Assembly: GCA_030704615.1 (NCBI GenBank)
Contig: CM060732.1
Span: 63,736,001 to 63,800,000, forward strand
DNA from: Takakia lepidozioides
Lineage: Eukaryota; Plantae; Bryophyta
Direction of reading: 5' to 3'
Length of the DNA stretch: 64,000 nt
Position numbers and translations under genes: made by a program. A model generated the notes under the pieces. The model was not told the origin of the DNA. It worked only from the letters and a program-made list of their open reading frames with translations, and searched no databases. The first letter of the stretch is position 1. Every line of letters starts with the position of its first letter. Positions 3,804 through 64,000 of this stretch are shown here, in pieces.

Positions 3804-3835
3804 GGTACACCGGCTGGAGTTACATTCCATTCTGT

Positions 3836-4480: not shown

Positions 4481-4587
4481 TGTTGGTGGGAGTGAAATAT
4501 TGATTGATCTAGTTCCTACGATTCTGGATTACATGAAAGATATATGGCACTGAAATGATTCAACATATCTAATTCTAATCTATCACT

Positions 4588-8676: not shown

Positions 8677-9200
8677 GTGTTACAGGCATTGCAAGAATTG
8701 AGGAAAGACAATCAGGAGATGAAGGGGAGGATACAGGAGCTTGAATTGCGGTCAAGCTCCTCATGGAGTATAGCTTCTGCCCTTCTAAGGCGTTTTCTCT
8801 TGCAACTCTCGATGGAGACGATTGCCACCAAGAACGTGTGGGAGAGGGACAACCACAAACCGTTTGTGGCTTATGCAAGATTTGCTTTGGAACCGATACA
8901 GTTTTTGTTATTTGGCACCATGGCGAAGGTGCGAAAAGGAGGCAACTCCTTTGTTGCCTCCCCTGAACTGCTTCGGTTGCTTTCGGATGCCACGCCGGCA
9001 AGGAGTGCTCTTTCATAATCTTCCATCCACAGAGGACTCTATTAAAGTTTGCCCGAGCGATTGATGACTTGCAGGCCGCGGATGATGATGACAACAAATG
9101 GCGCAAGGATGCGTATGGAACTTTATTGGAGAAAATCCTTGGGAAAACATTGGCGGAGATTCTCAAGGATGCAAGTGAAAGGTGTGGGAGGTACAGATGC
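8677..9200 (+). pseudogene. Degenerate orphan ORF with an N-terminal coiled coil
   Basis: ORF 8677-9018 (LQALQELRKDNQEMKGRIQELEL...) continues in another frame as FARAIDDLQAADDDDNKWRKDAYGTLLEKILGKTLAEIL. No family recognised. Confidence 0.3.
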
Positions 9201-9618
9201 CTACTACAACGTTGAATTGAAGGATGAGGTAATCACCAAGTCCCTGATGCGGCAAGGAAACAGTTGACTTTGCTGTTATGCTTGGGCTAGGGCTAGATCG
9301 GGTAAAGAGGCGAAAAGTTTGAGAATTGCATAGCCAAGGAACAAGAGGCAGTCTTTGAAGGAAAAATGAATGTGATTGAGGAAGTGATGCTCTCAAGAAG
9401 GTGAACATCAAATTTACAGTTGCTGTTACAGCAGAAGGAAATTCAGTGAACTTAAGCGATGCTGCTGAGGAAAAGAGATCTACTACACAAATGGAGGAGA
9501 GAACAGAGGTGAAGGAGAAAAGAGAGAAGGATCCGGAACAGAGAGGAATTGGTGATGGAACCCAGTGAAGAGATCTTCAAGGCAGGGCATGGAGACTTCA
9601 TTGGCGTTGTGAACGCGT

Positions 9619-28900: not shown

Positions 28901-28954
28901 ACCTCTGAGCTTGCCTCAGAAATGGAGACCTATCCTGTGGAAGTGTGGTCATAG
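22929..28954 (+). CDS. CHUP1-C-terminal-domain protein (At4g04980/At1g61080-like, proline-rich); multi-exon
   Basis: N-terminal MVELRRRVAVLRDTLKLPPCNGS; polyproline tract; ADALAEITK/RSAYFKKIEDDV; LTDESQ/VLARFKGFPSKKLE; FQLAFRVYNFAGGHD; stop at 28952-28954. Some internal exons are uncertain. Confidence 0.85.
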
Positions 28955-29624
28955 CGTTTAGTCCTTCCTCCCACCTGTCACATCACTCATGTTTTTATTT
29001 ACCAGTACATATCTTGTACAATAGTATCAATCCAAGTCACCAGTCCTCACTAATTATGTGATGACAGAGGGTGATTTCATTGGCTTGCTGACCAAGGTGG
29101 CCAGAGCAGATGCTACATCGGAGAGAGAGCGAGGAAAACTGAATGAGGGCATGAGAAGTCAGTTAGTGTATGAACAAACATGGAGCCAAGGGCAGCACCA
29201 TTGCAAAGAGTATGAGGCAGTACCTTCTTCCAGCGTCCCGGTTTGTAGTTATGAGAAGCACTCAGGCCTTAACTCAAAGCCTGAAGATAGTACAAGCCTA
29301 TAAAACAGAATTTACATCGGAAATTCTTATCTTTTTTCAATCGGAAATGAATGTGGTCTGGTTTGCAGTCAGATATAGGTCTGATTATTCTACTTGGGTT
29401 TTAGGGTGGCAAGTTAAGAGAAGAGAAAAAAGAAAGTGGAACCTCGTTATTCTGCCTTTGTAGCTTTCTGCAAGGTTGACTTTTCCTTCCCTATTAATAA
29501 AGTTTTTCAGGGCTACAATCCCCCTGTTCTCAAAAAAAAAAAAAAGCGGCTAGTCGCGTAATGGCTCCACCCTAACGACAAAACGTAAATGCTAGTGCTG
29601 AATATAATGGAAGTCAATCGAATA

Positions 29625-33900: not shown

Positions 33901-34319
33901 AGGGTTTGGGAAATGCAACAGAGGGGCCTGGGACATATGACTTCCCCTATGATGCGAAGCCTGTTCTCGTACCATCCTCCATGGACGAAGAATTTGCAGA
34001 CATACTTCACATTGTTGGTAACGACAAATACCTGGAGAAACATGTATTGTCTTCTCTTCGTATCTGTAGGGGGCAGCTTGTTGATATTCTTGCCAAGAGT
34101 GTTGCAGGAATGTTGCACCCTGCGGCAGCAGAGAGCTTCCGTCCTGTAAATGACAACAACAATATGTTGCTGAAAAAGAAACGGGATTTTGTTGAGGCAT
34201 GGAAAACGCGACCCAAAGTCGTAAGCAAAACAGGGAAGAGGGTTGGTGCCCCAACACCTGCAGCACACATATACTCCACAATCCGAAGGGTTGCAGACCG
34301 TATACCAATTATAAAGTAG
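30908..34319 (+). mobile_element. MULE-type DDE transposase with SWIM zinc finger (At1g60560-like), intron-containing, pseudogenised
   Basis: KRGCQCCF, IVACDATFGIN, LYTLMVFD..NGIP, FIVDDANAE, CLWHV, TNTSIEAYH and SWIM CTC.......CKRQ. In-frame stop at ~31791. Confidence 0.85.
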
Positions 34320-40935: not shown

Positions 40936-43900
40936 ATGCGTAGGCGTAGAATAGATGACCGTCTATGGCAAATGGAAGAAGCGTATGCCACAAGAAATGG
41001 GCATACAAAAATGCTATGCAACTGTGATGAGTGTCATGGAGGAAAACTATTGTTGTTGGAAACAGTGAGGAATCATTACATGATACACGGGAGGGATCCT
41101 CTTCTCCGACGTTATTCTCTTCCGGTACAATTGCCACTTTCCCAGTGACAACACTTTAGTTTGAATTTTGAATGCAACGATCCTCTTCTCCATATGTCGA
41201 CATTTCGTTACGTGTTTTCATTGGTCATGTGTAGTCATGTAGTCATATATGACTAACTAAGTGACTGCAACTATGACTTCAATGGCTACAAATGTCGTGT
41301 TTTGATTGGGTGTATATTCATAAGATACATACGTAAATATGATTGCATCACTGCAACGTCACCGTGCCTCCCATGCCATAATGATTAAGTGTCACATCGT
41401 TGTTGGTCCACTCACAAGATGACTATTGGGGTGCAGGGATGTGAATATTCAGATGATGAAGACGAAGGCCCTGCGGCACAGCGGGAGCCCAATGTCACAG
41501 AGAACGCAGATGAGGGTGGTGGATTGGAGGTAGAAATCCAGCGTGCATTGCAGGAAGCATTTCTCTTTGCAGATGCAAACAGAGAGGACCCCATTCATGG
41601 TGGAACCGATCACACATTTGCCGATCATGACGATGAACTCGACGATTTTGGAGACAATGAATTTGATAAGAATGCTCACCTGCACGTCGATCCCGAGTAT
41701 GATAAACTCTTCCGACAGGCGCAATGTCCACTTTTTGAAGGGTGCTCGATTAGCCGGCTGCAAGCAACTTTGACATTGCTGAACGCATGCACTACCCACA
41801 AGTGCACCAATGCATTTGTGGATGAGCTTCTGGGATTGTTGCGTAAGAGTTTTTTGCCTAAAGAGAATTCATTGCCGAAAACTCACTATGAAGCAAAAAT
41901 CATGATTGCCGAGATGGGATTGCAGTACACCATGATTCATGCTTGTGAGCGTGGTTGTGTACTCTTCCGTGGGGAGTATGAGAATGTAGACATTTGCCCA
42001 GTGTGCCGCAGTTCCCATTACATTCCAGGTCGTGGAAGTGTGCCCAAGAAAGTATTACGACACTTCCCTGTCATTCCAAGGTTGAAACGTATGTACCGAT
42101 GTAAGTCGATCGCTAACCTCATGACATGGCATGACAGACATAAGAGCCAGGATGGGTTGGTTCGACATCCAGCTTATAGCAAAGCATGGAGACACATTGA
42201 CACCACATTTGAGGATTTTGCTGCAGAGCCACGATCTGTGCGATTTGGATTGGCCTTAGACGGTGTAAATCCCTACGGAGCTCAATCCACCAGTTGGAGC
42301 ACATGGCCCGTTCTCTTGGTCAATTACAATATGCCTCCGTGGTTAATGACCAAAAAGTTCTTTGGCATGTTAGTGCTACTGATTCCTGGTAAGGAGTCTG
42401 TTATCTCGGACAATGTAGATGTTTACCTGATGCCCCTAGTGGAAGAGCTACTGGAACTATGGAGAGGGATTGTAGCCCATGATGTTTCCCGTCCTCGTGG
42501 TCAACGCGAATTCACACTGAGGGCAGTGTTGATGTGGTCAATCCATGACTACCCTGCATATGGCTTGCTCTCAGGTCACGTGACGAAAGGTTATGCTGGT
42601 TGTCCAACTTGTGGACCCGGGACGACTTCACAGCAGTTACACACATGTGGGAAAACTGTTTTCCTGGGCCACCGAAGATTTATGGCCCGCAATCATCCAT
42701 ATAGAAGGTCAAGAATGTTCAATGACGCTACTTAGCATGGAACTCCTCCAAAAACGCAGACTGGAACACAAATCAAGGAGCTTGCAACAGCTCGCACTGC
42801 ATGGGTGGAAAACGGAGGGATGCCAGACAGTAGGACAGACCCAGCTAAAACCAATGGAGTTAATTGATTGTCAATTTTATATGTCTTACCTTATTGGGAG
42901 GTAATTCCTTCATGGCTTTTAAATTGGCTGTGTACATCAATGCGATTTCTGTTTAAATTGTGATGAGTAAATGCTCAATATCGTATGTGTTCATTTTGTA
43001 GGGTCTCCTCATCCGCCACACGTTTGACGCAATGCATTGCGAGAAGAACTTGGCTGAAAATATTATTAAAATTATCTTTGGTGAGAAAGACACATTGAAA
43101 GTTCGCCGTGATTTGGAGCTACTTGGGATGCGCCCGGAATTATGGCTACAACGTGATCCTGACAGAGCAGATACGTCAATTATGCCTCCTGCCCCTTATG
43201 TCCTCACTGAGGCTGAGTTACAAGTCTTTCTGGAGATTGTGCAGAACTTGAAAGTGCCAACAGGCTACGCATCAGCTTTCAAAAAGCATGTGGTGAAGAA
43301 GAAATTGTCTGGCATGAAATCACATGACTATCACATGTGTGCTCATGCAGCAAATTATACCGTGTGCTATCCGTGGGCTCATGGCAAGTGGTCCTCGCAG
43401 GGCCATTTTGCGAGTATGTCGTGTATTTAAGAAGTTGTGTGCAAAAGTGGTGAATCATGTAGAGTATGAGGAATTGAGAACTGAAGCAGTTGTGACTTTG
43501 TGTCTTATAGAGAAGGAGTTCCCACCATCATTTTTTGATGTGATGACACATCTGGTTGTTCACCTAGTGGACGAGTTGTACTTATGCGGGCCCGTAGCAT
43601 CTCGTTGGATGTACCCCATGGAGCGGGCAATGAAAGATATGAAGGGCTACGTAAGAAACATGGCAAGGCCCGAGGGGAGCATGGCAGAAGGATACCAATT
43701 TGAAGAAGCATTGGGTTTTTACACAGAGTATATGGCGGGATTTGATGGAAGTGTACGAAGGGTGTGGGATGCAGATGAGGGAGAATCTGTGGAACGTGAA
43801 GTTGTGGAAGGAAGTTCTAAAGCTCGAAAATTGAATGACATGCGTGATATTGTACATGAGTACATCATTCAGAACCATCCTCGTCTGTTAGTCATGTTGG

Positions 43901-44987
43901 GGTAAGAAATCTACTCCATTGACATTCAGATTTCCAAGTTTTAGTCATTTCTCATTAGATGCGATATGGTGTCTTGTCATATCTCCCACGCCACCTCTGA
44001 CAATGTCCTGGCTGACCTTCGGATTGTGACAGGATATATGAAGCAGAGTCCACACGGATAGAAGTCAGACGACACTTGTTTCGTGAGGATTAAGGGCTGG
44101 AAGGCATGAGCAATCCCACGGCAATTCGGTACCCTCCTAATTTGCATCCATGTCCTCCATTTGTTGTTTGGCTCCCTCAAGGTGTACGGGATCATCTCTC
44201 AATTCAATCGGATGGGCTTGATCCTACAACAAGTGAGGAATTACTGGATCTTTCAAGGCCTCCATCATTTACTGCCCTGTCACTCAAGAATATGATAGCG
44301 TATGGTAACCATTACAGGGTTACATCCCCCGGCATGAACACAACAAGTATGGTGTCTTTTGATTGTGGAGTTTCATCTGTTTTCCAGCACCAACCCATTA
44401 CCAACAATTCAGGCGATGACATGGAGGAACCTACAAGATATGTGGGTCTTATAAGGGAGATTTTGCAAATTGACTATGGCCAAACACAGCCTATAGTGAT
44501 TTTGTGTTCTTGGGTACGAGCGCGTCGCGTGGGTCGTCAACCTATGTCAATGAAGCAGGATGATGTTGGCTTCACACTAGTCAATTTTAACTGTATGCTT
44601 CCACCTTCTGAGCAACCTTTTGAGTTTCCTGGCCAGGTTGATCAAGTGTTTTTTTCTGATTGTGTGAAGGAGCCGGGGTGGAAAGTCGTCCTGGAGAAGA
44701 GCCCCCGAGCACGTAGAGTGGTCTGCGACATATCACTTGATAATGATGATGTGGCGGAAGTGGAAGGATTGTTAGCCCCACAAAGACTAGAAGAGACTCT
44801 GGTTACTGATGGCCCAACATGCAGCCGAGCGGTACCGGTTACTCCAGAGCAGGTGGCCTCCTTGTACCTCCGAGCACCCCGTATACGTGGTGATGATGTT
44901 CAGCCAACCATTGTACAAGATCAAGTCTATGATGAAGACAGTGATACATGCAGTGACCCAGACATAGATGAGGATGATGAAGATTAG
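40936..44987 (+). mobile_element. CACTA (En/Spm) TnpD transposase: Transposase-associated, Transposase_21, DUF4218 and DUF4216 regions; pseudogenised
   Basis: CNCDEC..VRNHY..G, IHACERGCVLF, FGLALDGVNPY, STWPV, HDYPAYG, MHCEKN, KSHDYH, RWMYPMER, PEGSM and QVDQVFF. Premature stop at ~42733 and frameshift at ~43335. Confidence 0.95.
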
Positions 44988-49182: not shown

Positions 49183-52100
49183 CATGGGTAAAAACAGTAA
49201 GAACAAAATCAGCAAACTCAGTCAGAGCTCTCTGAAGAATCCTGTACTCTGGAGCAATTAAGTGAGTCTCACCTTTTCTCTTTCTTTTCCCCCTTCCACT
49301 TCCCCTGTAACATGATCTCTTCAAGGTCAACTTGGCTTTCAAATTGTCAATCTTTGTAGGTGTGGCCACTCTAACAGAGTGTGCAACTTGCAGATTATCA
49401 CTCATTCAAATATGAAATGAAATGGAGATTTTCAATAACTCCAGGTTTGATTTGCATGTTAATATGTGATGCACCAGGAATTCGCTGCTGGATTTTGTCA
49501 AGTTCCCCCATCGGAAAGAGCTTTCCATGCATGTTATCAAGTCTCATTCCTTTCATTTCTGCTTCTATGCCACACTAAGAGGTTTCTTGGGACGGTGTTC
49601 GAACTGTTAGTAACATATTCTGATGGGTTTGTGCTTGTCAGAAGGTACTAATGAAATTGGATGAGTTGAATCAGCATGTGAAAGTTGCTGTGACTCAACC
49701 AGAGGACACTGCAAACCCTGTTGCTACCCAACCAGAAGAAATGGCAAACTCTGCTGAGCTTCAACCAGAGAAGACAAAAGACCCCTCCAAGCAACCAGAA
49801 CAAGAGACCCCACCAACAGTAGATATAAATGGAGAGTTTGGACCACCAGTTCTCGCTGGAAAACCCCCTCCCGTTCCTTCTCCAGTAGGATTGATCCTGA
49901 ATAAATCGCCTAATTCTAACCAAGTTATCAGTGTACTCCCCCAGGAATCAGATCTCAACAAACAACCCAGTCCTGATCGGGTCTCTAGTTTATCCTCCCC
50001 TACTACTGTCTCCAGCAAGCCTCCTTCAACTCCCACCTCAGTTCTCCCTGCCAACAGACAGAAATCTTCATTCTATGTCAATGGGGGATCGCTCCAATGT
50101 TCTGGCCTCCAGCAGAGCTTGTGATGGAGAGATTGTTGCAGCAAAAGGAATAAAAATTGCACTGAGTACACACCTCCATAGCCGAAACAAGGCAACATGA
50201 GGAGAGAGTGACCATGGGCTTCCTTCAATCGGACAAGAACAGAAAAGTTGAACTGAATCATGTGACTCGCAAAAAGCTTGAGTTCCAGCTCATTGGTCTG
50301 TTCCACTGCTTCTATTTCCTTCTTTATCTGTGGGGAGCAAAAAGTGGAGAAAAAGAGGTTACTTTCAGGTTGGAAGTTCTTTGTTGTTAGAATTAATAAG
50401 AGAATCATCCCTTCTTACCCAAACACATGAGGCCAATTTAACCTCCCCAATAGCCTCTGCATGCTGCTGCACATCATCCTCTATCTTCTTGAAGTATGCT
50501 GACCTGTCCCCCCCAATACAATAAAAGGAAATACACTAGCGTATGAACGTTTCAGAGAAGTAGAATAGAAATGGAATTACTGTTTGTTCTGGAACATGTC
50601 ATGTGAAGATTGAGTCTAATTATATAACCTCCACTATCCTCTCTTCCTTCCTTTCCACAAGAAATCTAGGAAAACATGCCTCACCAAGGCTTCGTGTTGC
50701 TTTTGGGCTGCTGTTGGCTTCTCTCTTTTGTCTTTTATTCTTTCTTGTTTCTTGCTTTCCTTTTGTCCCATAAGCTCTTTGAGATTTCTGCAGACGTTAT
50801 AAAGGTCCATTTTACTGCATTTCATTTCATGTTGCTCAAAAGCAAGTACCCTACAACTATTGACAACACAAGGTTCACCTGATTTATCTGGAAAAGAGAA
50901 ATGTCAGAACACAGGATCAACAGCAACATACTTCTTGGTGATTTCTGCCAGGTGCATCAGCCATGCCTTCGCCTGAATTAGTAACCGGCCAGGCCCAGCT
51001 TCATCTCCTGTCCGACCCAGGGCTGCTCCTTCCACTTTACTTTTGACAATCCTGTGCAGCTTCCTAATCTTCACTGACCGTTTCAACTTTACTGCTTTGT
51101 TGGTTCGTAAGGGTCCACTTCCCGGTGGGGGAGGGGGTGGGGGAGGAGGGGGAGGTGCACCCAGTTTCTTGGTACCAGGTATAATGATTGGCAACTCACT
51201 GCTCTTCATTGTTGTGGTTAAGGAATGGCTGCTGTTAGCTGCAGTTGTTGCAGGTTGACTGGAGTTTACTGCCAGGCTTACGGGCTGTTTGCTTGGAGCG
51301 GCAGGCCCACTAGCTTTAGAAGTTGAGAGATGGGCACCAAAAATATCCACAGGTTTGATTCCATTGGTAGCTGCAAAGAAGCCTGGGGCAAGTCCACCAG
51401 GTCCCATAAACAGCAGGGATCCCTGGGCCAGATCAGCATCAGTCTGAAAGGCATGTGGAAATGTCTGTCGCATCCACTTCTTCCTCCTCTCGTCATGTGC
51501 CCAATCTGTGCTAGGTAGAGAGGGCTACAGTAGCAGTGCCTGGAATCAACATAATGCCTCCTAAGAGATGTTGTGTACGCCACATAAAAGGTAAACTCCG
51601 TGAGTCCTCTATTGCATTTCTGGTCGGCAGTGCGTGGGGAGCCTCCTGGAGCTGTGGATGTTGCAGCCTTGAATTCGTATGAACTTGATAAATTGCGCCT
51701 TAGCCTGCAAACCTTATGGCAGGCATTCCATGTCTACAACTTGCCGGTGGCCATGATGATGAGTCTGAAAAACCCACCTCTGAGCTTGCCTATTTACCAG
51801 TACATATCTTGTAAAATAGTGTCAATCCAAATCACCAGTCCTCACTAATTATGTGATGACCGAGGGTGATTTCATTGGCGTGCTTACCAAGGTGGCCAGA
51901 GCAGATGCTACATCGGAGAGAGAGCGAGGAAAACTCAATGAGTGAGGGCATGAGAAGTCAGTTAGTGTATGAACAAACATGGAGCCAAGGGCAGCACCCT
52001 TGCAAAGAGTATGAGGCAGTACCTTCTTCCAGCGTCTCGGTTTGAAGTTGTGAGAAGCACTCAGGCCTTAACTCAAAGCCTGAAGATGGTACAAGCCTGT

Positions 52101-52226
52101 AAAACAGAATTTACATCGGAATTTATCTATTTATTTAAGAGAAGAGAAAAAAGAAAGTGGAACCTCGTTATTCTGCCTTCGTGGCTTTCTGCACGGTTAA
52201 CTTTTCCTTACCTATTTTTCAGGGCT
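49183..52226 (+). pseudogene. Rearranged partial duplicate of the CHUP1-like gene with an inverted core
   Basis: 49183-50148 matches 25148-26122 (direct). 50148-51462 matches ~26165-28071 inverted, with a deletion. 51463-52226 matches ~28112-28298 and ~28751-29513 (direct). Frameshifted. Confidence 0.92.
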
Positions 52227-53849
52227 TCATAAAAAGAAAAGGGCACCTTGTTACTAAGGGGTGGACTCTCGGGTTTGAACTCCTCACCATCTGGTGTAAG
52301 CTTATGGAATTCACTCACTGCCAACCGACTTTCCAAGTTCCGGAGCCCATTAGCTAAGTTTGTAGGAATGTCTTATATAGAAAAACAACACATGAGGGCT
52401 GGGCGTTCCTCCGCACTATTAAGATGACTTCTGAGAACAACGTCCACGTCGATGGGCTATATCCAAGTTTTATGAAAAGATGAGAATTTATTTCATTTGA
52501 TATTAATTTGACTTGTGTAATGACCGTGGCTCGTTTTTTATACAAGTGGTTAAAAAATCTGGATTACGAATGCTGTTTATATGATATCTTTTTCATCTTT
52601 ATTTTCAATTGGTTTAGATTTCAAAACGTTTGGATTTTTATTTAATGTCACGGTTTCATGAAGAAACTTTGTTGTTTTCTAGTTAATGCATATTTGTTCC
52701 AGCGTTCATCATGTATTTTGTCTTTAATTAAATCATTAAGAAAAAACATTCTTTCTGTATTATTTGAAGTGCATGCCCAAGTTGTTTTGATAAAAATCTT
52801 TGTCTTGATAAAATTTATTGATATTTGTTCTGCCACTTTCCAATTCCACTTATCTATCGAGCTGTGCAGAATTGGATGCCAACCTTAGGGCCGGGATATG
52901 TGGAAAGGAAGTTTCTGAGATTTGTAACTATGTCAGCCTGAATATTACAAAACATTCTGGTCTACTATGGGCACTTGGTTGGATGTGGTAGCCACTGGTC
53001 TTGAATCTTGGGCCATGCAGCTTTACTATATGTTTTAATTAAGGGACAACTAAAATTGTTAAGCCAGAGAGCTCTTGTAGTTCCCTGCATCATGAGAGGC
53101 CTTCACTACAGCCTCCCGCAAATCTGCCAGCCTGGATCACCAGCTCCAAGTGTCAGCACAGCATTGGTACAATATTCCATGTCCACAGCATTTTGTCAAA
53201 CAGTTTCACTACTTGCTAGAGTTCAACCCTCCAGGCAGGTGCTCTTGCCTGCTCATGGCTAACTTACTTAGACTTGATATGGATTGCCGGCGGGTATGAT
53301 CTGGACTAGAAATTTTTCCCCAGAGATTGTTTGAACACATCCTCACTTTATCTGTACCCTTATCATATTTATTGTCCCCCCCACCCCGTTGCAATATTGT
53401 TGTGCATATATATATTCCACAAGATTTTAAGGCTTGTTTCTTACTGGAGTGAAGTCCAACTGCACAAAAAACGTTTGCTATAATCACTTAGCAAACAGCA
53501 GGAATGGTCTTGTGTATGAGACATCCTGCAAAGTCTTGCCAAGAGAAGATTAAAGACAAATTGCACTCTGGCGGCCCCTAATTGGAGATGGAAGTGTTGA
53601 ATGACTTCAACAAACTTAATGAATTGGTTGCAAAATCTTGCCAGTCTGTGGTACTGAGAAGTAGCCTGCTTTTGCATGTGGGTGACCAAATTCTTGGAGC
53701 TTGATACTCTCTTTTTCAATATCTCTCCCCTTCCCAGATGCTAACTTGTGTAATGCTTGAGTTGAACTGAAGATGTCCAGAAACAATGACATTGTTGAGG
53801 GATACATTACTGGCATACATGCATGTAGACAGATGGAAACAAAAGTGAG

Positions 53850-55412
53850 CAGACTGATGTATGTAACCTTGTCAGCCATCACTCAGTCCCTTTGCATTTG
53901 CTCATAGATTTTGAGGGCCTCTTCACTATGACCACACTCTCATATCATGTGGCCATTGCACTCCATGACACCACTATCATGATTATCCATTTTGTCAAAC
54001 ACTTAACGTGCTTCTTTCACACTCCCACATTTAGCATACATATGGACTAGGGTAGTCTCCAAATTAATATATGACATAATCCCAGCTTCCTTGATGTCAG
54101 CATGGATCTGCTTCTCTGTTTCTAGTGCTCTAAGCTAGCACAGGCATCGAGAATGGTAATATACGTGACTCTGTCAGGTATCACCCCTTCCTGTTCCATT
54201 TGCTCATAGATTTTGAGAGCCTCTTCGCCATGTCCAAGCTGAGCATACCCTGTGATCACGACACTCCATGAGCCCACATCGTGCTTACACATTCTGTCAA
54301 ACACTTCACGCGCATCCTTCACACTCCCGCAACTGGCATACATGTGGACAAGAGCGGTGTCAAAATATTTTCTGACTGAATTCCAGTTTTGATGATATCA
54401 GCAGGATTCCCCTGCCACTTTCCAGGGCTCAAATCACTTGCACTCTGTAACTAGGCTACTCGGTCACCACAGATTTGAGCTTACACACAGTGGGAGAACA
54501 CAAACCTATGCTTCTTCTTGACACGGATGGTGCCCCATCACACCCAACATCATCCACATGCCCTGCAATATCACAATGATAGCCGCAAAGAAGGAAGATA
54601 AATGTCAATCCAAATTGCCATATTGGCTAGAAATTGTATGCAAAAAAACAATTTAGATGAGTCTCTCTTGTGATGCATGCAATTTCAAGAAGATGCCATT
54701 TGCAGTTGGCATGCAAGTGTCCACGAGAGGATTTAGGGTAGGAGTTGCACCTGCATACTCCTGGAGGAAATCCATTGTGGATGGTGACAAAGCAGCGTTC
54801 AGATTCCACCATGCACGGTAAAAAAGGTCCACCATGCAGCCATAATGTTCCACAGTAGCATTGAGCCCATGATCTCGACTCATGGGATCAAAATAGTGTT
54901 GGCCTAGACCCCCCTGATTACATGCCAATAGAAGACATACAAAGGTGATACCATTCACCTTTTCTGTTGCATGTGTTCAAATACACGAAGAGCCTCCCTA
55001 CCATACCCATGCTGGATATCCGTGTCAATATCCTAGCTTTGATGATGGCACCATGGATCTATATGCCCTTTTCCAGGGCGGCAAGATGCGCGCACATATT
55101 GAGAATGCAAATCAACACAACTTTGTTGGGCTTGACACATTCCCTCATCATTTGCTCACATATGTCTATAGCCTCTTTATTATACCCATGCTGAGCATAT
55201 CCTGTTAACATTGCACTCCATGAGATAGCATCTTGTTGAGCCATATTGTCAAACACTTGACGCGAATCCTTTAGGCTGCCACACTTTGCATTCATGTCCA
55301 CAAGGGCATTCTCGAGAATGAAATCTGGTATAATCCCAGTTTTGATGATGTCAGCATGTACCTTTTTGCCCTTTTCCATGTTGGAAAACAGCTCATAATC
55401 TGCATCTTGACT
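53850..55412 (-). pseudogene. PLS-class PPR pseudogene fragments
   Basis: ENALVDMNAKCGSLKDSRQVFDNM, HYFDPMSRDHG..ATVEHYGCMVDL and MYASCGSVKDAREVFDRM, with stops and frameshifts. Cut at its 5' side by an LTR. Confidence 0.85.
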
Positions 55413-55695
55413 TGTAGATAAAGTTAGAGACATTAAAACTAACTCTCTATTTAGAGAGGCTTTTGTCTCTTAAGGTTAAAGCTAGTCCATTTGGGACTAC
55501 TTAACGTATGTAATGAAAGTAGGTATAAAAGGCAAGTCTTAGTGATTGCTTTTAGCCTAGCTAGAACTATATAAGAAGCTCGGGGGTGAAGCCACATATC
55601 AATTGTTCATGTTGTGTGTTTCTATGGTTGGTGAAGAGCTTCTATACAATCCTCATTTGTTGTTCTATCTACGTTTTTCAATATGGTATCAGAAC
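55413..55695 (+). mobile_element. 5' LTR (~268 bp, TG...CA) with a tRNA-iMet-type primer-binding site, from a truncated LTR retrotransposon
   Basis: TGTAGAT at 55413, TATATAA at ~55568, ...TTTTCA at 55680, then TGGTATCAGAAC at 55684-55695. Confidence 0.7.
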
Positions 55696-57546
55696 CTAGT
55701 TGCTAGAAGGTGGCTGCAGTTTCATGCTAGATAGAGGAGGTGCCAGCGAGGACGTGATCAAAGTGAGCTCCTAGTCAAAGCAATTCGGTCCACGACCAGT
55801 GATCAGTAAAAGTCTGTGAGTTTGCTGATTGTCAAGATCCTCCTGTCAGCAGGCCTATGATGACCTTGCTGCTACTGATGTAGCCCCTCTTCTCAACATT
55901 TTTTGTGCTGATCGGTACCCATTGGCCTTGGATTCACATGGCGTATTGGCTGCTTGGGGCTGGTCTAGCCTTCTTGATGATCCTGGTTGATTTATTCGTG
56001 TGTTAGTATGCACTACAACATATTGCGGCTTTTATGACTCCCATGGGTGCGCTGTCACGACAAATTTGTGGTAGAAATGCCATTTGCAGTTGTAAATGCC
56101 TTTTGAAGTCATAACATAGATCACGACGAAGCCGTTTTATGCGACTGTATGACTCCGAACTTTGCGCAACACAGGTCAAACACCCTTTGACCAGGAATAT
56201 TGCCATGGCGGATATGACTACCAGTCAGGGTCATGCCCATACTAGAATGACGTGTGCATATTGCTAGACGGACATATGACTTCATGACTGCCACTCTAAT
56301 GCATTCTGCCAGATCATCACATGCCGTCATGACATGGAGAGTCTGTGACATTGAACAACTTATGAGGTGTCTACATATGATTGGTTAAGTGGTTTTGATA
56401 TTGTGGTGCGGGGGATGCAAGTGAAGGGAATGGTTGCACACGAAGCAGATTAGTAGGCCGTTTGCGCTTTGTGGAGAAGAATGGAACGTGAAGCCAACAT
56501 GCTAGAGAGGCGATCTGGAACCGCATCTGTTTGTGACGTTACGTTCAAATGGCGACGTGCATTTTAGTGTTTGTTGATCGCGGACAACATCAAAAGCAAG
56601 CCTCATACTACGGAATGACAGACGAACAAATGAACACTCTAACATATCGCCTTGTGCATGTCGTCCGGGTAGCAAGCCGTCCTGGAGATCGACGTCGTGT
56701 GGTACTGGAATAGAAGCTTGGCAATACGGTCTGTTCTGATCCACCCACTTTGCCATGGGGGGGTGTTCTAAGAATGGGAGAGCCCATGAATTCAGCTTCT
56801 TGTATGATAAAACAACTGAGATAACAGCTCATGTTGTTCTCTCTAATGTACATATCCCCAATGACCTGCCCCAAGCTAGAACAGCAGCAGGATGACATCA
56901 GGGAATAATGATGTGGTGCAAGGCATGGAACACCTGCAGGGCACCAGCATTGTAGTGCTAAATGTACTACACCCTGCTTGAGCCATTCACAGATGGGGGA
57001 CTCTACAAGTGAGTCACATGGTGTTAGCTGGGGCATGAGAGAAACTGCCCATAAAATGCATCTGCGCAAAGAACCCATTCAACCAGCCAGAGCATCATCT
57101 ATGCGGATTGCCGGATTCTTTTGGGAAAAATGCAAACATGATAAGTAGGGACCAAGCTTAAAAGCACCACTGGTATTCAATGGTCCATAACACGAGCCTG
57201 CCCAATATAAGACCCACAAAATCACTGGGGCAATTATGTAATGTAAACTGGAAGGCACATGCACTTTGTCAACAATGTACCCAAAGGCAGAACTGATGTG
57301 TAAATCTGCATGTCGTTCCAAAGTCTATAGTGACATAAATGTCATGTCACGTTGCCAGACAGACACACCATGTAAGTTGGACACCTCCAACACCTGCAAA
57401 AAGGACACCCCCCAACCCTTAGTGCCAGTCTTATGAATCCCACATTATTCATGAATCAACCGGGATTACATATTGAATTTTGCCCCTTCATATACTTGAG
57501 ATAGAGAAAGGCAGTTGGGGGGGGAAGTCGTACCTCATTCTAGGTA

Positions 57547-57780
57547 CTAGTACACATCCACATCAACCAACTCCTCATCACTGGACTCTGAATCTCCATC
57601 GCAACTGTCCTCCGTGGGACATGGATGTGCTTCCTCAGATCGCATGTCTCTGTAAAGTGAAGCAACCTCTTCAGGTGTTGTCGCGCGACTTTTACTCACC
57701 CATCCCTTCGCTATCCGAGGCGGGAACTCCAAGATAGAAGAGTTGGAAATCTCTAAGCACTCAGCCCGCTCAGAACAATC
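57547..57780 (-). mobile_element. C-terminal tail of a second CACTA TnpD, interrupted by an LTR
   Basis: SRATTPEEVASLY plus an acidic tail parallels SRAVPVTPEQVASLY plus an acidic tail at the end of ORF 44106-44987. Confidence 0.55.
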
Positions 57781-58356
57781 AGTCATGACCTACAACTAGT
57801 GTATCATGGGGGTGTTTCCTATTTATTTTCCTTCCCGCATTCATGTTAGCTAGTTACCTTACTGTTGGTATTTAAGTATTAGTTTGCTTCAGCAATCTAT
57901 CGGATTCCATCAACTCATCCATTCATTCCACAGCTTCACTCAGATCTCTCTACACAGTGTGAGTATGAAGTATGTATCAGATTAATATCTATCAAGTATC
58001 AGGCTGAAGCCATGGTATCTCTATTCTGCTCTACATTACAACTCTACTTCTTGCATTCAGCAAGTATCAACAGATCGTTCTCCTCCTACTCCATGCTCTC
58101 CCCCTATCTGCTCAGAGATGTGCTCTCTGCTTCATTTCCAAGTTCTGATTTCCCCCGAAGTCATCCCCAACTCCTTCCCGAAGTGATTCCCCAAGAAGTG
58201 ATCCTTTTCCAGTCCTCGCTCCTGGCTTTCTCTTCCTACCTGTTGTTTTAACCGTTTCCCTCACTAACCGTCATCCGTGAACTAACATGTTCCATTCGCA
58301 GATATTGTTCCCACAGTCGTTCCCTGTCCTGCTATCCGTTCCCTATGGTCGTGACA
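57781..58356. mobile_element. LTR-like segment (576 bp)
   Basis: Near-inverted termini AGTCATGACC...GGTCGTGACA (8/10), internal TATTTAAG and CT-rich tract. No TSD seen. Confidence 0.5.
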
Positions 58357-58362
58357 GCTATG

Positions 58363-58634
58363 TCAAGCTGTGACTGGCTGTGTGAAACTATGACGGGCTG
58401 TGACTAGCTGTGCGACTGTGTTGGGCTGTGACGGGCTGTGTCGGGCTGTGATTGGCTGTGCGACTGTGTTGGGCTGTGTCGGGCTGTGTCGGGCTGTGAC
58501 TGGCTGTGTGGCTGTGACGGGCTGTGTTTGGCTGTGATTGGCTGTGACGATTGTGTCTGGCTGTGACGGGCTGTGTTGGACTGTGATGGGCTGTGTCGGA
58601 CTGTGATGGGCTGTGTTGGCTGTGACGGGCTGTG
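58363..58634. repeat. Degenerate 10-bp tandem array (GGCTGTGNNN)n
   Basis: Units such as GGCTGTGACG, GGCTGTGTCG and GGCTGTGATT repeat over ~270 bp inside the presumed 3' LTR. Confidence 0.9.
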
Positions 58635-58639
58635 TACCC

Positions 58640-58792
58640 CCCCCCCCAAAATGCGCTGCTGTCACCCCTAAGGCTCATGTTGGTCTCAGTCTGTGCAAAA
58701 ATTAAGGGTACCCCACAGATCCCGTAAAAGTGCCTAAGTCCCAGACAGTCCTCTAACATTACCCCTTCCCCTCTCAAAAAGTCGTGTCCTCA
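58640..58792 (-). mobile_element. Polypurine tract and start of the 3' LTR of a gypsy element
   Basis: Minus strand reads GAGGACACGACTTTTT-GAGAGGGGAAGGGGTAA-TGTTAGAGG. The LTR begins at 58758. Confidence 0.75.
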
Positions 58793-58796
58793 CGGT

Positions 58797-60729
58797 TTAC
58801 TGTTTGGGATTTGTAACCCTTTGTGAGCGAGCACCCTTCTGACGGTTAGAGTCTCGTGAAGGACTCCGTGTACGAGCCCGTGTCCTGTCACTGGTTGAGG
58901 GAGATGATTGAACACTACCTGGATATATCAGTCCCTCTGGAGGCTGATATCGAGGTAATCTTTCAGGCATAGGAGACCCCCGTCGCTTCTTCTCTGCCAT
59001 CTGAATTGCATAGTCCTCTGCCATGTCAAAAGAGTCCGCTGAAGAAACAGTTGTATCAGAATCCTCGTCCCCCCTGAGATGTTTTAACTGTCGAACTCTA
59101 ATTGGAATTCTCTGGGGCATACAATGTTATCCCACCATGTCTGGAAGTTTAAACTGTAAAACTTGTTGTAAGCGCTGAATTGCAAAATTGGTGAAGACCC
59201 TGAGCTCCTTGTCTGTCCAGGTGAGTGGGGTACCAATGACTTGTGAATTGTGCAAATATTTCCATGCCTCATGTCCCTTAAAGAAAATATCGTCAGGCCC
59301 GAATTTCTGTGTTGACAAATTGTTCCAGGCCGCATGAAACCATGAACGAATCTGAGAATCCTTTTGCATCATAACTTTTGCCTCATATAGGTACATATGA
59401 GGTGGCACTGAAGGTAAGACCCAATGATCCCCACTGGAATAACTCAGAAAGCGCGTTTGCATCTTCTGCTGCTCAATGTGATAACGTACCAGAAAACAAG
59501 CAGCGTAGTGTAACCCGCAGCCCATGACAATACTTGCTACCTCTTTGGTCTTGGTATAAATGAATCCATGTACAACTTGGAAGGCAATTAATTCCTTCAA
59601 CATGGTACTTGCCTCATGCCAGTACTGCGCAAAGTGATGATCCTCAATTGGTCGATTGTTCGGAAGAACTTTAGTCCTAGTTGCCACTGGCAGCCAATTG
59701 CGCATGATTTGATAGTAATGTGCCAACGACTGCGGAGGACTAAATTCCTTCCAAGCCAAATCCAACACAATGGGAATTTGGTTGAAGGGCATAATCATAG
59801 CCCGACTGTACTCCGTGCAGCTGGAGTTTTGGGTGGGTTAAAAGCAGCATTCCCCCATACCAGGCTGTGGTGGCTGTGGTGTGGCTGTAGTAACAACAGG
59901 GTCAGCTACTGTTACAGTGACTTGTGGTGGATTTGGTGGCATTGGCTCTTGTACCATTGGCATCTCCTGCACCCCCTGCGAAGAAGATTGAAAAGCCAAA
60001 GTTCTGGCTTGTAAATAAGAAGCCATCAGTTGTTCCTCAGGTACAAAGACTCTCTTGTCGATATTTGAAGTGAGGTCCTCCACCTGAGTCTGCAGGCCGT
60101 CTACATCCTCCTGTAACTCCGCTATCCTACTATAGACATTGTCTATAGTAATTGTGGCAATGTTCTGCACTTGCAGTCTGAGCTCATTCATCTCGCTTTG
60201 GGTGAGCTTTCGTGGTGCTTTGCCCTCCACCGGCCCTTGTGCTAACTTGACCTGCATAAGGTGGTTATCCACCAAGTTGCTTGTGGCACCCCTGAGAGTC
60301 TGCTCCTCTGTGAGCCTGTACACATCTATCTGCTGCTGTAAAGCCTCCATGCGCTTCGCATGAGGTTCAACCAAACTCGCATAGGCAGCAGCCAGATTAT
60401 TGGCTTCCTTCCAAGCCTTGTTAGCCACAGAGAGTTTCATTTCTATTTACCATGAGCGTTTGTTGCAACTCCAGGATGTACCTCTCTTGGTCAGCTTCAA
60501 CCTGCCTGTATTGCTTGAAAGTATTCTCATTGCGATAGATTGTATTCTTCATATCGACAATGAGTTTCGTTTGCTCGACATTCTCTGCCTCTGCCTTCGT
60601 ACATCTTTCCGCTTGACTGTTTATTTCTATTGTAGCTTGGTCAAGCATAGTTGTGAGTATAGCACATTGTATGGCCATCCTGTCATGCACTATCTGCAAC
60701 TCCGTATGTAGTGCATTCACTTCTTGCAA
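58797..60729 (-). pseudogene. Accessory ORF3-position gene of an LTR element (coiled coil, globular domain, basic RS-rich tail), frameshifted
   Basis: Four consecutive same-strand ORFs (60421-60729, 59838-60440, 59127-59798, 58797-59120) end just before the PPT. Confidence 0.6.
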
Positions 60730-60734
60730 CTTGC

Positions 60735-61701
60735 TTTCCTGATAGGTCGTCTCAAGATAGGCGCCGAGGTCAACCTTGCCTTGAGCTCTTGAAAAGCTCG
60801 TTCCTGCTCATCTTCCCACTGCCACTCCTGGTCCACCTTGGTCAGCTTGGTTAGAGCCTTTGCAATGGTACTAAATCCCTTGACAAACCGTCTATAATAG
60901 TTTGCCAACCCCATGAAAGCTCGAACTCGGCTCACATCCGTGGGGGGTGGAATTTGTGCAATGGCCTCTACCTTAGTTTGCTGTACCCCCAATCCTCCAG
61001 GATATATCATGTGACCCAGATACTCAATCTGGTTGTGGAAAAACTTTCACTTCCCCGGATGCAACTTCAATCCGTGCGCTCTCAAGCGCTCCAATACCAC
61101 CTGAAGGTGTCTCTCATGCTCCTCCATCGTAACACTAAAGATGATGATGTCATCTATGTAGCACCGAGCAAAGTCCACCCCTGCTAGAATCCTATCCATG
61201 ACTCTCTGAAACTCTGCAGGAGCATTCTTAAGCCCAAATGGTCAGAACCGCCACTGGTATAGGCAATCCTTGCCGTGCTCATTGATCCCCCAGAATGTCC
61301 GTCTTCTGCTTGTCCGCCTCCTTGATTGGCAACTGGTGATATCCGGATCGTAAATCCAAAGTGCTAAAGGCCTTAGCATGCCCGATGGCATCAAAGATCT
61401 CCTCTGGTGTTGGCATGGCATACTTATCGGACTTGGTCTGACGATTTACAGGCCAGTAATCACCGCACATACGTCTCTCCGTCCAATTGCCATAGACATC
61501 CTTCTTGGCTGGCATCACTGTGGCTGAAACATACTCTCCACCAGAGAGCTCTACCAAACCTGCCTCCCAGAGATCTTGAGTCATCATCTGAATCAAAGAC
61601 CTCTCCATGTCACTGTATCTATAGGGTCTCCGAAAGATTGGCGTGTCAGTGGCCAACTCAATACGGATCTCTTGACCCTTTAGTGCTCCCAAGTCCTTCA
61701 A
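60735..61701 (-). mobile_element. Ty3/gypsy reverse transcriptase and connection region, truncated before RNase H and integrase
   Basis: RMCGDYWPVN, LDLRSGYHQ, PFGLKNAPAEFQ, YIDD (61149-61160), FMGLANYYRRFV and LTSAPIL. One stop and frameshifts. Confidence 0.95.
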
Positions 61702-62164
61702 ACTGAAGGCAAAGCAATTCCTGTAAGCCCTCAGGAACCGCCGTATACGTTGTCTCTCTCCTCCGGTGACAATGGGTCCAATGTCAGGCTCCCAATTGTC
61801 CTCCGTAAGTACAACCTTAAGTCCAGTGGGCTTAGAGGTAGATGACGCGTCTCGTGGTTGCTATGCTGCAACCTCTTGAGCAGTACTCCCCTGCCTGCTC
61901 AGTCAATGACAAGACCTCATCCTGCCCCATCATCTCATCATTGAGGACCTCCTCAACCCGAGAAGAATCCCCAACCTCATCTATCACAGCCGCCTTGGCT
62001 GCCAACTCCCTCTAACCTCGAGCACCTCCCACGTGTGCCATGGATGCATGCACCCCGTGGTCCTCACATGCTCGCCCCCACTCACTGCCTGTACCGTCTC
62101 GGTAGGCAGAGAGACCATTGAGGGAAGTGTACTCCGCACTCTGCGTTGCTCAGCTAGAGCCAAG

Positions 62165-63110
62165 CTGATAATCCAGGTCAAGCAATTGAGATCCATTGCT
62201 TGCCCCAACACTTGACGACGTGATGCCTCAGAAAGAGACGACACCGCCGTGGTACCAGTGGTAAAACCCATTGCCCGCTCACGCTCGTCAGCATTAGGCT
62301 CCACTAACTGCTGCAATTGAGCATCCCACAGGAGGCCAGGTCCACTATCCCGGAAAGCATGCGATCCTGGGAAGCTGAGCAGTGTAGGTAATGCTGCCCG
62401 TGGTTGACCCACCTTGTTGACCACGCCAAAGGCGAACGGTCATCGTGTCTCACACGCTGAGACTGCCTCCCTGTGTCCAGAATGTTATCCACTGTGAGAT
62501 GTGCTGGCCGCTGCACCCATCAAATGCACGCTTGAGCAGTGCGGGTGGCATCAAGTTAGTCCACCATAGCCGTGGACGATGAGCCGTGACCCCACTGTAG
62601 CTGCATCTAGCAACACTGCTGACCCAAGCCACGACCGGACTTGATGCACACTGGCCATCACCCTGGCCCGAGAATTGCCCATCAGTGGCACATTCTCCAA
62701 GATGTATGCTGGAGATACAGCTTGATGAAGCTGCAAGTGGCGCAAACCGCACCATCTCCCAAAACAGACCCGACCTCAAGTCTCGCAATCCATTGCCATG
62801 CCCGGCTGATGAATGCCCTTGGCAGGGCCAACCTGCCACTACCAGATCAATGGAGCCACCCGCTCCAAATCCTGCGCCCCCAGCAACGAAATGTCTGCTG
62901 GCAAGGCCTGCTGATATCCACGAATTGCAGACACCGACAACAACTCAGGGTACCGCTGCACCAACTGAGCAACATGGCGAAGTGAAACGCGTCGTGCAGT
63001 CTCATCCCTCTCCACATACAGGTAACGCCGAACTCGTACACCTGCTTGTAACACAGCAGCCAATCCGGTGCTGATCCCGCCAAACAAGTCCAGAAGACAA
63101 ATGCCTTCAT
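62165..63110 (-). mobile_element. DNMT3-like cytosine-5 DNA methyltransferase domain within gypsy pol (frameshifted)
   Basis: Motif I LDLFGGISTG, II YVERD, IV AGWPCQG, VI ILENV, VIII AHRPRLWWTN, IX ERERAMGF and X RRQVLGQAMD, in canonical order. Confidence 0.92.
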
Positions 63111-63499
63111 CCGGATACTGCCACACAATAGGTGTGGTGTCCAATGGAGACAATTGAGGTGGTCCTGGTGCAATCCCCACACTCTCCTCCTCTCCTGACG
63201 GTACAAAAGCCTCCACCCAGGCTTGTTGCACCGTCGATCAGCATCCCGCTGCAAATCCTTGCTCGTGCCCCACAATGGAGTCTGAGCAACCATGGTAGGC
63301 AACTCCGCCATACCATACATCCTGCTCTCCCGGAGGTGGTACATCCTCTGAATGAGCATTGCCCTCAAGCAACTCTCTAGGCCAACTCACTGCCGCTGTG
63401 AATGCTGCTAGTGTCGGCATCTTGCCTCGCTGGGCAACCGCAACTCCTCCTATGAACGTCACAGGGAGCTGCACACGCCGGCCCTCCCCTGACTGCCAT

Positions 63500-63830
63500 G
63501 CAGGCCTATAGGAAGCTGACTCCTCCCAAAAATCCAGGGTGAAGCCCATGGGGTACAACACTGCCCCACCAACCAGGACATCGTATGAGCGTCTGTCACA
63601 ATGGCCTTGGCTCGCATCACTGAGCCATCTGTAGGGTGATCCGGCCGTAGTCTGATAGCCAACTCACGCCGTGTCATGCCCCGAGCCTGCTCCGATCCTC
63701 CCAGAGACGTCTGTATCTGGAAAGGACAAGGCTCCATATCCGCCTCCGTGAGGCCCAAGCCTGCAATAGCAGCTCTGCCCAGCATCAATGGCTGAGCTCC
63801 CGAGTCCAACAAGACCCGCAGTGGCCGGTA
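63500..63830 (-). mobile_element. Retroviral-type aspartic protease of the same pol
   Basis: RVLLDSGAQ (DSG at 63798-63806), followed after a frameshift by YDVLVGGAVL. Confidence 0.85.
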
Positions 63831-64000
63831 CCTCTTGCCTGCCGGTCCACTCAAACAGAAAATGCCATCCTGGTTGTCTAACATGACAACTCCAGGTGTC
63901 ACCATGGCGCGCTCAATGGCTGGCCTAGCTGGCAGCTCCATCAACCTGGCAGCTGCAGCTTGCCATGGCGCCGCCGTGGCAGTCTTGACCTCAAATCCGA

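Follow-up and report, generated by a model that had tools for sequence, protein, structure and literature searches.

A Ty3/gypsy retrotransposon family of bryophytes with a DNMT3-like cytosine methyltransferase in its Gag-protease frame, ahead of a predicted readthrough stop

What retrotransposon-borne methyltransferases do has been an open question since 2018, and Symbiodinium and Klebsormidium, their known hosts, are hard to manipulate. A stretch of 64,000 nucleotides from Takakia lepidozioides (contig CM060732.1), called the window below, contains near one end the remains of such an element. An initial annotation made from the letters alone had described a Ty3/gypsy retrotransposon with a C5-methyltransferase between protease and reverse transcriptase. 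The motifs on which this was based were all recovered on the minus strand, in order and scattered across three frames: LLDSGA at 63812, LDLFGG at 63093, YVERD at 63018, AGWPCQG at 62836, ILENV at 62703, LDAATVGS at 62610, HRPRLWW at 62581, ERERAMGF at 62286, RRQVLGQ at 62220, and YIDD at 61160. The element and the sequence fused to it are composed of the following features.

63564–63998, minus strand: end of the spacer between Gag and protease, and aspartic protease (LLDSGA); PF13650 with E 0.007, below the cut-off; matches to P0002, P0009 and P0019 with 53–56% identity
63133–63563, minus strand: C-terminal part of the protease, with the linker that leads to the methyltransferase; the frame is broken near 63585 and 63230
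62134–63132, minus strand: DNMT3-like C5 cytosine methyltransferase domain with motifs I, II, IV (PC), VI (ENV), VIII, IX and X in canonical order
61864–62133, minus strand: ORF1 tail behind the methyltransferase, with little conservation; compensating pair of frame breaks near 62013 and 61888
61855–61863, minus strand: in-frame stop with the 3' context TAG CAA CCA, which fits UAG-CAR-YYA (motif definition in PMC2754532); predicted readthrough site between ORF1 and ORF2
60738–61854, minus strand: start of ORF2 with reverse transcriptase (YIDD) and the first residues of RNase H, cut off at 60738
58797–60737, minus strand: fused downstream sequence, a decayed ORF with no Pfam family and coiled-coil-like matches only; absent from 89 of 89 loci tested
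57679–58778, minus strand: polypurine tract, then an LTR about 1080 bp long, from TG at 58758 to CA at 57679; loose ends of matching contigs at 57679

A Pfam search of 16 stop-free pieces of the window yielded 33.1 bits for the DNA methylase family PF00145 (cut-off 22) on the piece 62453–62944 and 59.4 bits for RVT_1 (cut-off 29.6) on 61050–61241. The aspartyl protease reached 17.4 bits, under its cut-off of 24.3, which is passed by relatives of the same domain order (P0073, P0128, P0130, P0259). As the initial annotation had stated, there are no introns in the methyltransferase and several frameshifts. These were mapped to positions near 62857, 62746, 62583, 62515, and 62424 in the methyltransferase and near 61298 in the reverse transcriptase, which also has stops near 61243 and 61047; sister copies are free of them. 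The gag gene and the 5' end are outside the window. At 60738 the copy breaks off at the start of RNase H and joins a different sequence, and loose ends and partly placed records of matching contigs are found at this junction. With its frame breaks and truncation the copy is a dead member of a highly repeated Ty3/gypsy family, and it retains, as had been noted, the PC and ENV motifs of the methyltransferase.

The region from 60737 to 57679 is not favoured as the 3' half of the methyltransferase element, because relatives of that element end in an integrase with PHD finger and split repeats and lack both a tRNA primer site and a polypurine tract, and because the ORF of this region is missing from all 89 loci. 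This ORF, for which neither Atlas nor Pfam gave a name, is probably part of a different high-copy LTR element, and the LTR belongs to that fused element. The polypurine tract at this LTR and the tRNA-type sequence which follows 57679 in other copies are presumably its PPT and primer binding site. Elsewhere the window contains PPR pseudogenes and a CACTA transposase, consistent with a land plant but not indicative of a particular class, and no tRNA genes; a piece of a host gene from the window had no match in a homolog search, and in the Atlas all hits were below 0.9.

Collinear relatives with the order Gag-PR-DNMT-RT-RH-IN-PHD were found in Marchantia, Sphagnum, and Calypogeia as well as in metagenome loci, and the methyltransferase has the same position in these three bryophyte genera and in streptophyte algae, so that it is a family trait. 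Of the 80 metagenome loci retained, 53 have the reverse transcriptase behind it, as do L088 and the window; each of the remaining 27 loci lacks either a nearby match to the reverse transcriptase or one to the C-terminus of the methyltransferase, mostly because the contigs end. L088 is intact and consists of a Gag-PR-DNMT frame of 1162 amino acids, the stop context TAG CAA TCA, and an RT-RH-IN-PHD frame of 1047 amino acids. A DDE integrase (PF00665) follows RNase H in the family and completes the Gag-PR-RT-RH-IN order in relatives such as L088, and the integrase carries a PHD finger. L088 and L090 were, together with one weak match, the only findings in prokaryote genomes; the two appear to be eukaryotic DNA that contaminates a cyanobacterial bin. 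In viral collections all matches were to methyltransferases of phage type, with 23–43% identity. In contigs of runs X3, X5, and X6 the coverage of the methyltransferase is about that of the reverse transcriptase.

TG...CA ends with a short target-site duplication were seen in relatives only, the window copy having no ends of its own. Among 13 loci inspected, the 4-bp flanks are identical in L018, L035, L070, L064, L051, L054, and L080 and differ at one position in L072 and L030; the other four lack one end. Examination of four Sphagnum-like loci (L018, L035, L070, L072) showed split repeats in the arrangement A-coding-B-A-B, with A about 340 bp and B about 115 bp; this arrangement was not seen in L088, which is a collapsed contig. 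Marchantia polymorpha has full-length annotated Gag-PR-DNMT frames (P0019, Mp_4g09160, and P0036, Mp_8g17980), and 20 Marchantia gene models among the matches are transposon pieces, which can inflate DNMT counts. In a quick midpoint-rooted tree that contained no host DNMT3 or DRM sequence, the window and the Klebsormidium nitens protein P0108 are placed within a methyltransferase group of 36 rows with a support of 94. A quick midpoint-rooted tree of the reverse transcriptase agrees with it around the window.

The view that the enzyme is DNMT3-like and not permuted in the way of DRM was borne out by the canonical order of motifs I to X and by structural comparisons. A profile search of the PDB gave DNMT3A with an E-value of 2.7e-27, DRM-type enzymes with 6.4e-16, and DNMT2 with about 5e-6, and the predicted fold of the relative P0001 (pLDDT 92.6) had DNMT3A as its best structural match (E 7.4e-19). 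ORF1 was found to have neither PWWP nor ADD nor any other module for targeting. The catalytic cysteine is present in 78 of the 79 loci with coverage of its site and the glutamate of motif VI in 69 of 75, both being invariant in an alignment of 59 sequences; two residues of the SAM-binding motif I are kept in 75 and 76 of 77 loci. Between lineages the methyltransferase is under purifying selection like the reverse transcriptase, with a median pN of 0.18 and pS of 0.74 for the window against 81 loci, as compared to 0.17 and 0.76 for the reverse transcriptase (54 loci). Within the main group of decayed copies its constraint is weaker than that of the reverse transcriptase or RNase H and equal to that of the protease (median dN/dS 0.54 for the methyltransferase, 0.53 for the protease, 0.37 for the reverse transcriptase, 0.38 for RNase H). 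A CpG or CHG footprint of self-methylation was considered and found not to be specific: the CpG observed/expected ratio of the window element is 0.55 overall and 0.31 at codon junctions, a loss no stronger than in the fused ORF without methyltransferase (0.46 and 0.29). The out-of-frame row L029 was left out of one CpG comparison.

One part of the initial annotation had to be revised. The domain order stands, whereas the placement of the methyltransferase inside pol does not: an in-frame TAG at 61863–61861, which is a family feature, separates it from the reverse transcriptase, so that it forms the C-terminal part of the Gag-PR ORF, 112 codons before the stop in the window as counted from motif X. 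Annotated ORF1 proteins likewise end 92–112 residues past motif X (Marchantia P0019, P0027, P0036, and P0076, Calypogeia P0007, and others). The first in-frame stop upstream of the reverse transcriptase was surveyed in 55 sequences and is TAG in 36, TAA in 16, and TGA in two, with none in one. CAR-YY follows in 49 of the 55, in four synonymously saturated lineages; 44 of these 49 have CAA CCC and belong to a single group of close relatives, which reduces the number of independent cases to four lineages. The exact CARYYA occurs in four sequences (window, L029, L030, L088). At 38,776 stop-like triplets used as background, CAR follows in 3.0% and CARYYA in 0.23%. The stop motif is a conserved island, and the gaps between lineages downstream of it measure 18, 6, and 3 nt, all of them keeping the frame. 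For a possible RNA stem 3' of the stop, six pairs were predicted and none had a compensatory change, so that its conservation was not supported. The relatives P0069 and P0259 have one continuous ORF, so the stop is not needed for retention of the methyltransferase. Judged by its context, TAG CAA CCA is very probably a readthrough site of the tobacco mosaic virus (TMV) type; the methyltransferase would then be made at the level of Gag, which alters the stoichiometry to be expected. That a stop is conserved at this place suggests that production of the enzyme in large amounts has been selected for.

From these data a working model can be outlined, for which as a whole the chances appear about even. 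ORF1 would encode Gag, protease, and the DNMT3-like methyltransferase and would end at the conserved TMV-type stop, and readthrough at low frequency would yield RT-RNase H-integrase-PHD, so that the methyltransferase would accumulate to Gag-like abundance, far above the reverse transcriptase. It is likely that the enzyme is packaged in the particle and released by the protease, and equally likely that it is catalytically active. Whether the element's own new cDNA is its main target is evenly balanced. Such cDNA would arrive pre-methylated and resemble resident methylated chromatin, and the PHD finger of the integrase may read histone marks where the element inserts. A precedent is given by the SymbioDIRS-Dnmt3 domains, which in yeast carry out de novo methylation of CG, and methylation of cDNA has been proposed. 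The Klebsormidium Gypsy-DNMT3 domain gave no methylation in yeast, a result its authors called inconclusive (PMC5890265).

Other readings concern the origin of the domain, the way ORF2 is made, and the task of the enzyme. Capture of a host DNMT3 fragment by a single dead element, in which it would be neutral, would agree with the many frame breaks of the window copy; it is refuted by the collinear relatives in three bryophyte genera and streptophyte algae, the metagenome loci, and purifying selection, and the lack of introns, the agreeing trees, and the equal depth of methyltransferase and reverse transcriptase leave it next to no credibility. ORF2 might be made by reinitiation or splicing, which would still leave the methyltransferase at Gag level. 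An ATG two codons past the stop in the Sphagnum-like group would permit reinitiation, but the first methionine lies 84 codons into ORF2 in the window and 47 in L029, and there is none in the first 100 codons of L088. Some Marchantia and Sphagnum gene models fuse methyltransferase and reverse transcriptase and skip the stop region (P0053, P0022, P0035, P0060), but the stretches skipped differ, as would be expected from automatic annotation across stops. As the CAR-YY island and the frame-keeping gaps are also conserved, both routes are considered quite improbable in comparison to readthrough.

Concerning its task, the enzyme could act mainly on chromosomes, entering the nucleus after release and methylating integrated copies or their promoter repeats in a self-limiting feedback, competing transposons, or host DNA. 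Output at Gag level would be more than is required for a single cDNA in each particle, plant DNMT3 acts de novo on CG and CHH (PMC6453930), and in Marchantia met1 mutants transposons are upregulated and non-CG methylation is gained with little change in host ROS1, IBM1, and DRM transcripts (10.1101/363937). Against this, ORF1 has no targeting module, Klebsormidium as a host of such elements has an ordinary plant-like methylome (PMC5890265), and most copies seen are broken, which makes a mainly chromosomal role unlikely, if the least so of these alternatives. A job in the particle other than DNA methylation, such as binding or shielding of cDNA or RNA, RNA methylation, or a structural part in Gag, would agree with the inactivity of the Klebsormidium domain in yeast (PMC5890265), with the unspecific CpG footprint, and with co-expression with Gag; it is improbable in view of the cysteine and glutamate invariant in 59 diverse sequences, the retained SAM-binding residues, and the DNA enzymes DNMT3A and DNMT2 as nearest solved structures. 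A wider scenario, speculative and rather improbable, would combine the favoured cDNA methylation with a chromosomal effect: an ancient green-plant Ty3 lineage with DNMT3-like enzyme and PHD integrase would persist in mosses and liverworts, its leaky stop mass-producing an active de novo methyltransferase which marks cDNA and spills onto host chromatin, so that part of bryophyte de novo methylation, e.g., the non-CG gain in Marchantia met1, would be written by the transposon rather than by the host.

The Gypsy-DNMT3 kind of element is known since 2018 (PMC5890265). As far as literature searches show, its occurrence in land plants, where the initial annotation had known of no characterised family, the readthrough-type stop, and the integrase PHD finger in the family are new. 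A review had described land plants 'such as tracheophytes' as lacking methylase-encoding transposons (PMC6338049), which is contradicted at least for bryophytes. An account of the plant Ty3 lineages Phygy, Selgy, Tcn1, and Chlamyvir contains neither 'methyltransferase' nor 'Marchantia' in its main text (PMC6317226). The stop is a plant chromosomal candidate for TMV-type readthrough. Since Marchantia polymorpha is a genetic model with methylation mutants and has full-length Gag-PR-DNMT frames, the role of the enzyme is now directly testable.

Compared to known systems, the stop shares its six downstream bases with the UAG-CAR-YYA of the TMV replicase, which yields about 10% polymerase-containing product (PMC2754532); unlike there, it lies in a retrotransposon, after a protease and a methyltransferase, and its readthrough is a prediction. 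Host plant DNMT3 and DRM have the same fold and motif set, the window enzyme following the DNMT3 order without the circular permutation of DRM, but it has no introns and no host-type accessory domains and forms part of a Gag-PR frame. SymbioDIRS-Dnmt3 and SymbioLINE-Dnmt of Symbiodinium are likewise retrotransposons with a C5-methyltransferase, of DNMT3 type and CG-active in yeast in the DIRS case (PMC5890265), but they are tyrosine-recombinase or LINE elements of dinoflagellates, whereas the window family has a protease and a DDE integrase. EpiLTRs and DAM-LTRs (bioRxiv 10.64898/2026.05.21.726589) are also Ty3-like LTR elements which combine a methyltransferase with a chromatin-reading domain, there an adenine methyltransferase, a chromodomain, and a DNMT4-sister enzyme, here a DNMT3-like enzyme and a PHD finger. 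The closest system is KnitGypsy-Dnmt3 of K. nitens (de Mendoza et al. 2018, PMC5890265), from a genus for which the initial annotation had mentioned retrotransposons of this sort; it is likewise a Ty3/gypsy element, and its DNMT3-related domain has no introns, is unrearranged, and is under purifying selection. The K. nitens protein GAQ93235.1 (P0108), which we infer to be a copy of it, has the same order of zinc knuckle, protease motif, and methyltransferase, and the A-coding-B-A-B layout of the four Sphagnum-like relatives is one that the legend to Fig. 4c of that paper terms DIRS-like. Differences are that this protein is only 29–31% identical to the nearest relatives of the window element, and that the nearest named relatives of the latter are land plants. 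In KnitGypsy-Dnmt3 the methyltransferase is in the Pol ORF, the same ORF as reverse transcriptase and RNase H according to the response to reviewers (PMC5890265), whereas in the window family a conserved stop lies between them. As methyltransferase and reverse transcriptase are thus joined only in the predicted readthrough product, the window family is a variant, rather than a plain member, of the KnitGypsy-Dnmt3 kind.

A six-frame translation recovered on the minus strand all the motifs which the initial annotation had quoted, in the order protease, methyltransferase motifs I to X and reverse transcriptase (RT). When 16 stop-free pieces were compared with Pfam, the motif IV piece reached 33.1 bits for PF00145 against a cut-off of 22, one RT piece exceeded the cut-off of RVT_1, and the protease scored under its own. 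Contigs of four public sequencing runs aligned to the window revealed that 57500-64000 is highly repeated (76,473 contigs in run X3; this depth is not to be read as copy number). According to these contigs only the window copy carries the frame breaks and the two stops in RT. Its RNase H, integrase and PHD finger have been lost. A 2325-nt contig from run X7 (record 26), reaching from the protease to the RT start and aligned on 61642-63891, lacks the eight frame breaks listed for the window in this range; its loose ends resemble what we take to be a cloning-vector polylinker, which would fit a cloned family member.

The DNA methyltransferase (DNMT) is DNMT3-like by family profile and by the predicted fold of a relative. 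A family profile of 59 members compared with solved structures matched DNMT3A best (E 2.7e-27), followed by DNMT3B/C, DRM-type enzymes (6.4e-16) and HhaI (3e-9). The predicted model of the related protein P0001 (74% identity to the window piece) reached a pLDDT of 92.6 and aligned to DNMT3A with E 7.4e-19 and a TM score of 0.81 by target length. The catalytic cysteine and the motif VI glutamate are invariant in the family alignment; among the loci covering these residues, 78 of 79 retain the cysteine and 69 of 75 the glutamate. Between window and loci the median pN was 0.18 and pS 0.74 (saturated) for the DNMT, similar to RT with 0.17 and 0.76; for every domain the columns of low local identity had been masked, and pN is lowered by this masking. 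Among the decayed copies of the main group dN/dS amounted to 0.54 for DNMT, 0.53 for protease and 0.37 for RT. In quick trees built without host DNMT3, the window grouped with bryophyte-type elements and the divergent locus L088, with support 95 for DNMT (21 of 58 rows) and 99 for RT (9 of 31 rows).

Sixty-three proteins of 232-2000 residues were matched by the window motif I-III piece with up to 75% identity. Among the 27 carrying species names were 20 from Marchantia polymorpha, four from Sphagnum and three from Calypogeia fissa, and none from vascular plants or Physcomitrium. An alignment query yielded L088 and 117 metagenome loci; L088 and the best 80 of the latter are collinear, with Gag, protease, DNMT, RT, RNase H, integrase and PHD finger, and the DNMT is a trait of the family. 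L088 carries an intact element (1-9285) with ORF1 (Gag-PR-DNMT) and ORF2 (RT-RNase H-integrase-PHD) both open. It sits in a cyanobacterial genome bin, likely as eukaryotic contamination, and its contig ends overlap by 127 bp, as in a collapsed repeat. The Marchantia and Sphagnum gene models P0022, P0035, P0053, P0059 and P0060 fuse DNMT to RT and skip the stop region, and are likely annotation artefacts of transposon copies. A wider search (280 cluster representatives, E < 1e-30) found the protease-then-DNMT order, among named members, in Closterium, Klebsormidium nitens and Mesostigma, and the DNMT placed after RT in Haematococcus and Cymbomonas proteins. The latter belong to a second architecture with the DNMT between RT-RNase H and integrase-PHD (P0077, P0091, P0097, P0099, P0252, P0254 and P0256-P0258), which suggests either a move of the DNMT inside the element or two separate gains in green plants.

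The following features are located in the window:
31305-34319, plus strand: Mutator-type transposase (presumed)
41389-44987, plus strand: CACTA transposase pieces (PF02992, DUF4218)
53800-55470, minus strand: decayed PPR genes
57679-60737, minus strand: tail with a decayed family-less ORF, a polypurine tract and an LTR of about 1080 bp
61863-61855, minus strand: in-frame TAG CAA CCA, 112 codons past motif X

CACTA and PPR genes, with bryophytes as the closest relatives that bear a name, make a land plant the likely host of the window. The probable Mutator-type transposase had no Pfam match. A duplicated, rearranged segment (25148-29495 and 49183-52216, 85-95% identical) contains a proline-rich ORF presumably resembling the C-terminal part of CHUP1-like proteins, a label for which no database support was found.

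The stop between DNMT and RT was surveyed in 55 sequences containing both domains (53 metagenome loci, L088 and the window). In 49 of these, CAR-YY comes right after a stop in the RT frame, and 44 of the 49, all from one close group, read CAA CCC; the six exceptions comprise two nearby frame breaks, two insertions, one lost stop and TAG TAG CCA in L077. No sister-copy variants at the window stop occurred in the 40 of 59 rows listed. The exact CARYYA (chance level 0.23%) was found in the window, L029, L030 and L088. The four stop-bearing lineages (main group, L029, L088 and window) are synonymously saturated, and the motif forms a conserved island with frame-keeping gaps 3' of the stop. Annotated Marchantia and Calypogeia ORF1 proteins terminate at the equivalent position. 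CAR YYA 3' of UAG is required for about 10% readthrough in tobacco mosaic virus (TMV), according to an excerpt of PMC2754532, and this CAR YYA context is matched, as judged from sequence, by the window, L029, L030 and L088 stops. Against a readthrough stop count an ATG two codons past the stop in the main group, the continuous single ORF, with no stop, in some relatives, and the lack of support for a conserved RNA structure 3' of the stop, which was looked for. Expression of ORF2 by reinitiation or splicing is quite improbable; ORF2 of L088 has no methionine within its first 100 codons.

Architecture, conservation, stop context and fold form the established part, and the mechanism proposed beyond them draws on retroelement biology. 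Most ribosomes would end translation after the DNMT, because of which Gag-PR-DNMT would outnumber the RT-integrase product. The enzyme would enter the particle together with Gag, be freed by the protease at poorly conserved linkers and encounter newly made double-stranded cDNA, whose methylation we rank first with about an even chance of being its role. Action on chromosomes ranks second and is rather unlikely; no compositional footprint distinguished it from action on cDNA. The single Klebsormidium Gypsy-DNMT3 assayed was inactive in yeast; since human DNMT3B gave no activity there either, the result was termed inconclusive (excerpt of PMC5890265).

At 60738 the window copy adjoins the decayed ORF, polypurine tract and 1080-bp LTR, where sister contigs run into RNase H. 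The tail probably belongs to another LTR family and became joined to the DNMT element. These runs show it, too, to be highly repeated; a tRNA-type primer site is present in its other copies, and a short tandem array lies within its LTR (about 58360-58640). In Sphagnum-like relatives the repeats are arranged as A-coding-B-A-B, with TG...CA ends, 4-bp duplications and no obvious tRNA primer site. The ends of loci L018, L035, L070 and L072, as well as L051, L054, L064 and L080, are those of integrase-bearing gypsy elements with 4-bp duplications, whose split repeats follow the pattern A-coding-B-A-B or, where part has been lost, A-coding-B. Directly after its 5' repeat L070 carries a 22-nt sequence that is the complement of part of repeat A and may serve self-priming.

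Comparison was made with excerpts of bioRxiv 10.64898/2026.05.21.726589 (including its EpiLTR section), PMC12344493, PMC6453930, PMC6317226, PMC12885004, 10.1101/363937, PMC2754532, PMC6338049 and PMC9940879. In the literature searched, with subscription journals and Repbase outside its scope, no description of a land-plant DNMT-gypsy family or of its stop was found. Excerpts of two later papers place such elements in 'streptophytes' with bryophytes unnamed, and their supplements may contain bryophyte sequences; 'Marchantia' does not appear in three searched supplements of PMC5890265. The window DNMT-gypsy element is real and well supported, and its added weight comes from its occurrence in land plants, the availability of a tractable host and a readthrough-type stop placing the enzyme with Gag. 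Gypsy elements with PHD fingers have a Chlamydomonas precedent, the Gypsy-DNMT3 kind was already published (PMC5890265), and the A-coding-B-A-B layout corresponds to the DIRS-like label of KnitGypsy-Dnmt3, the Klebsormidium nitens element, in the Fig. 4c legend of that paper.
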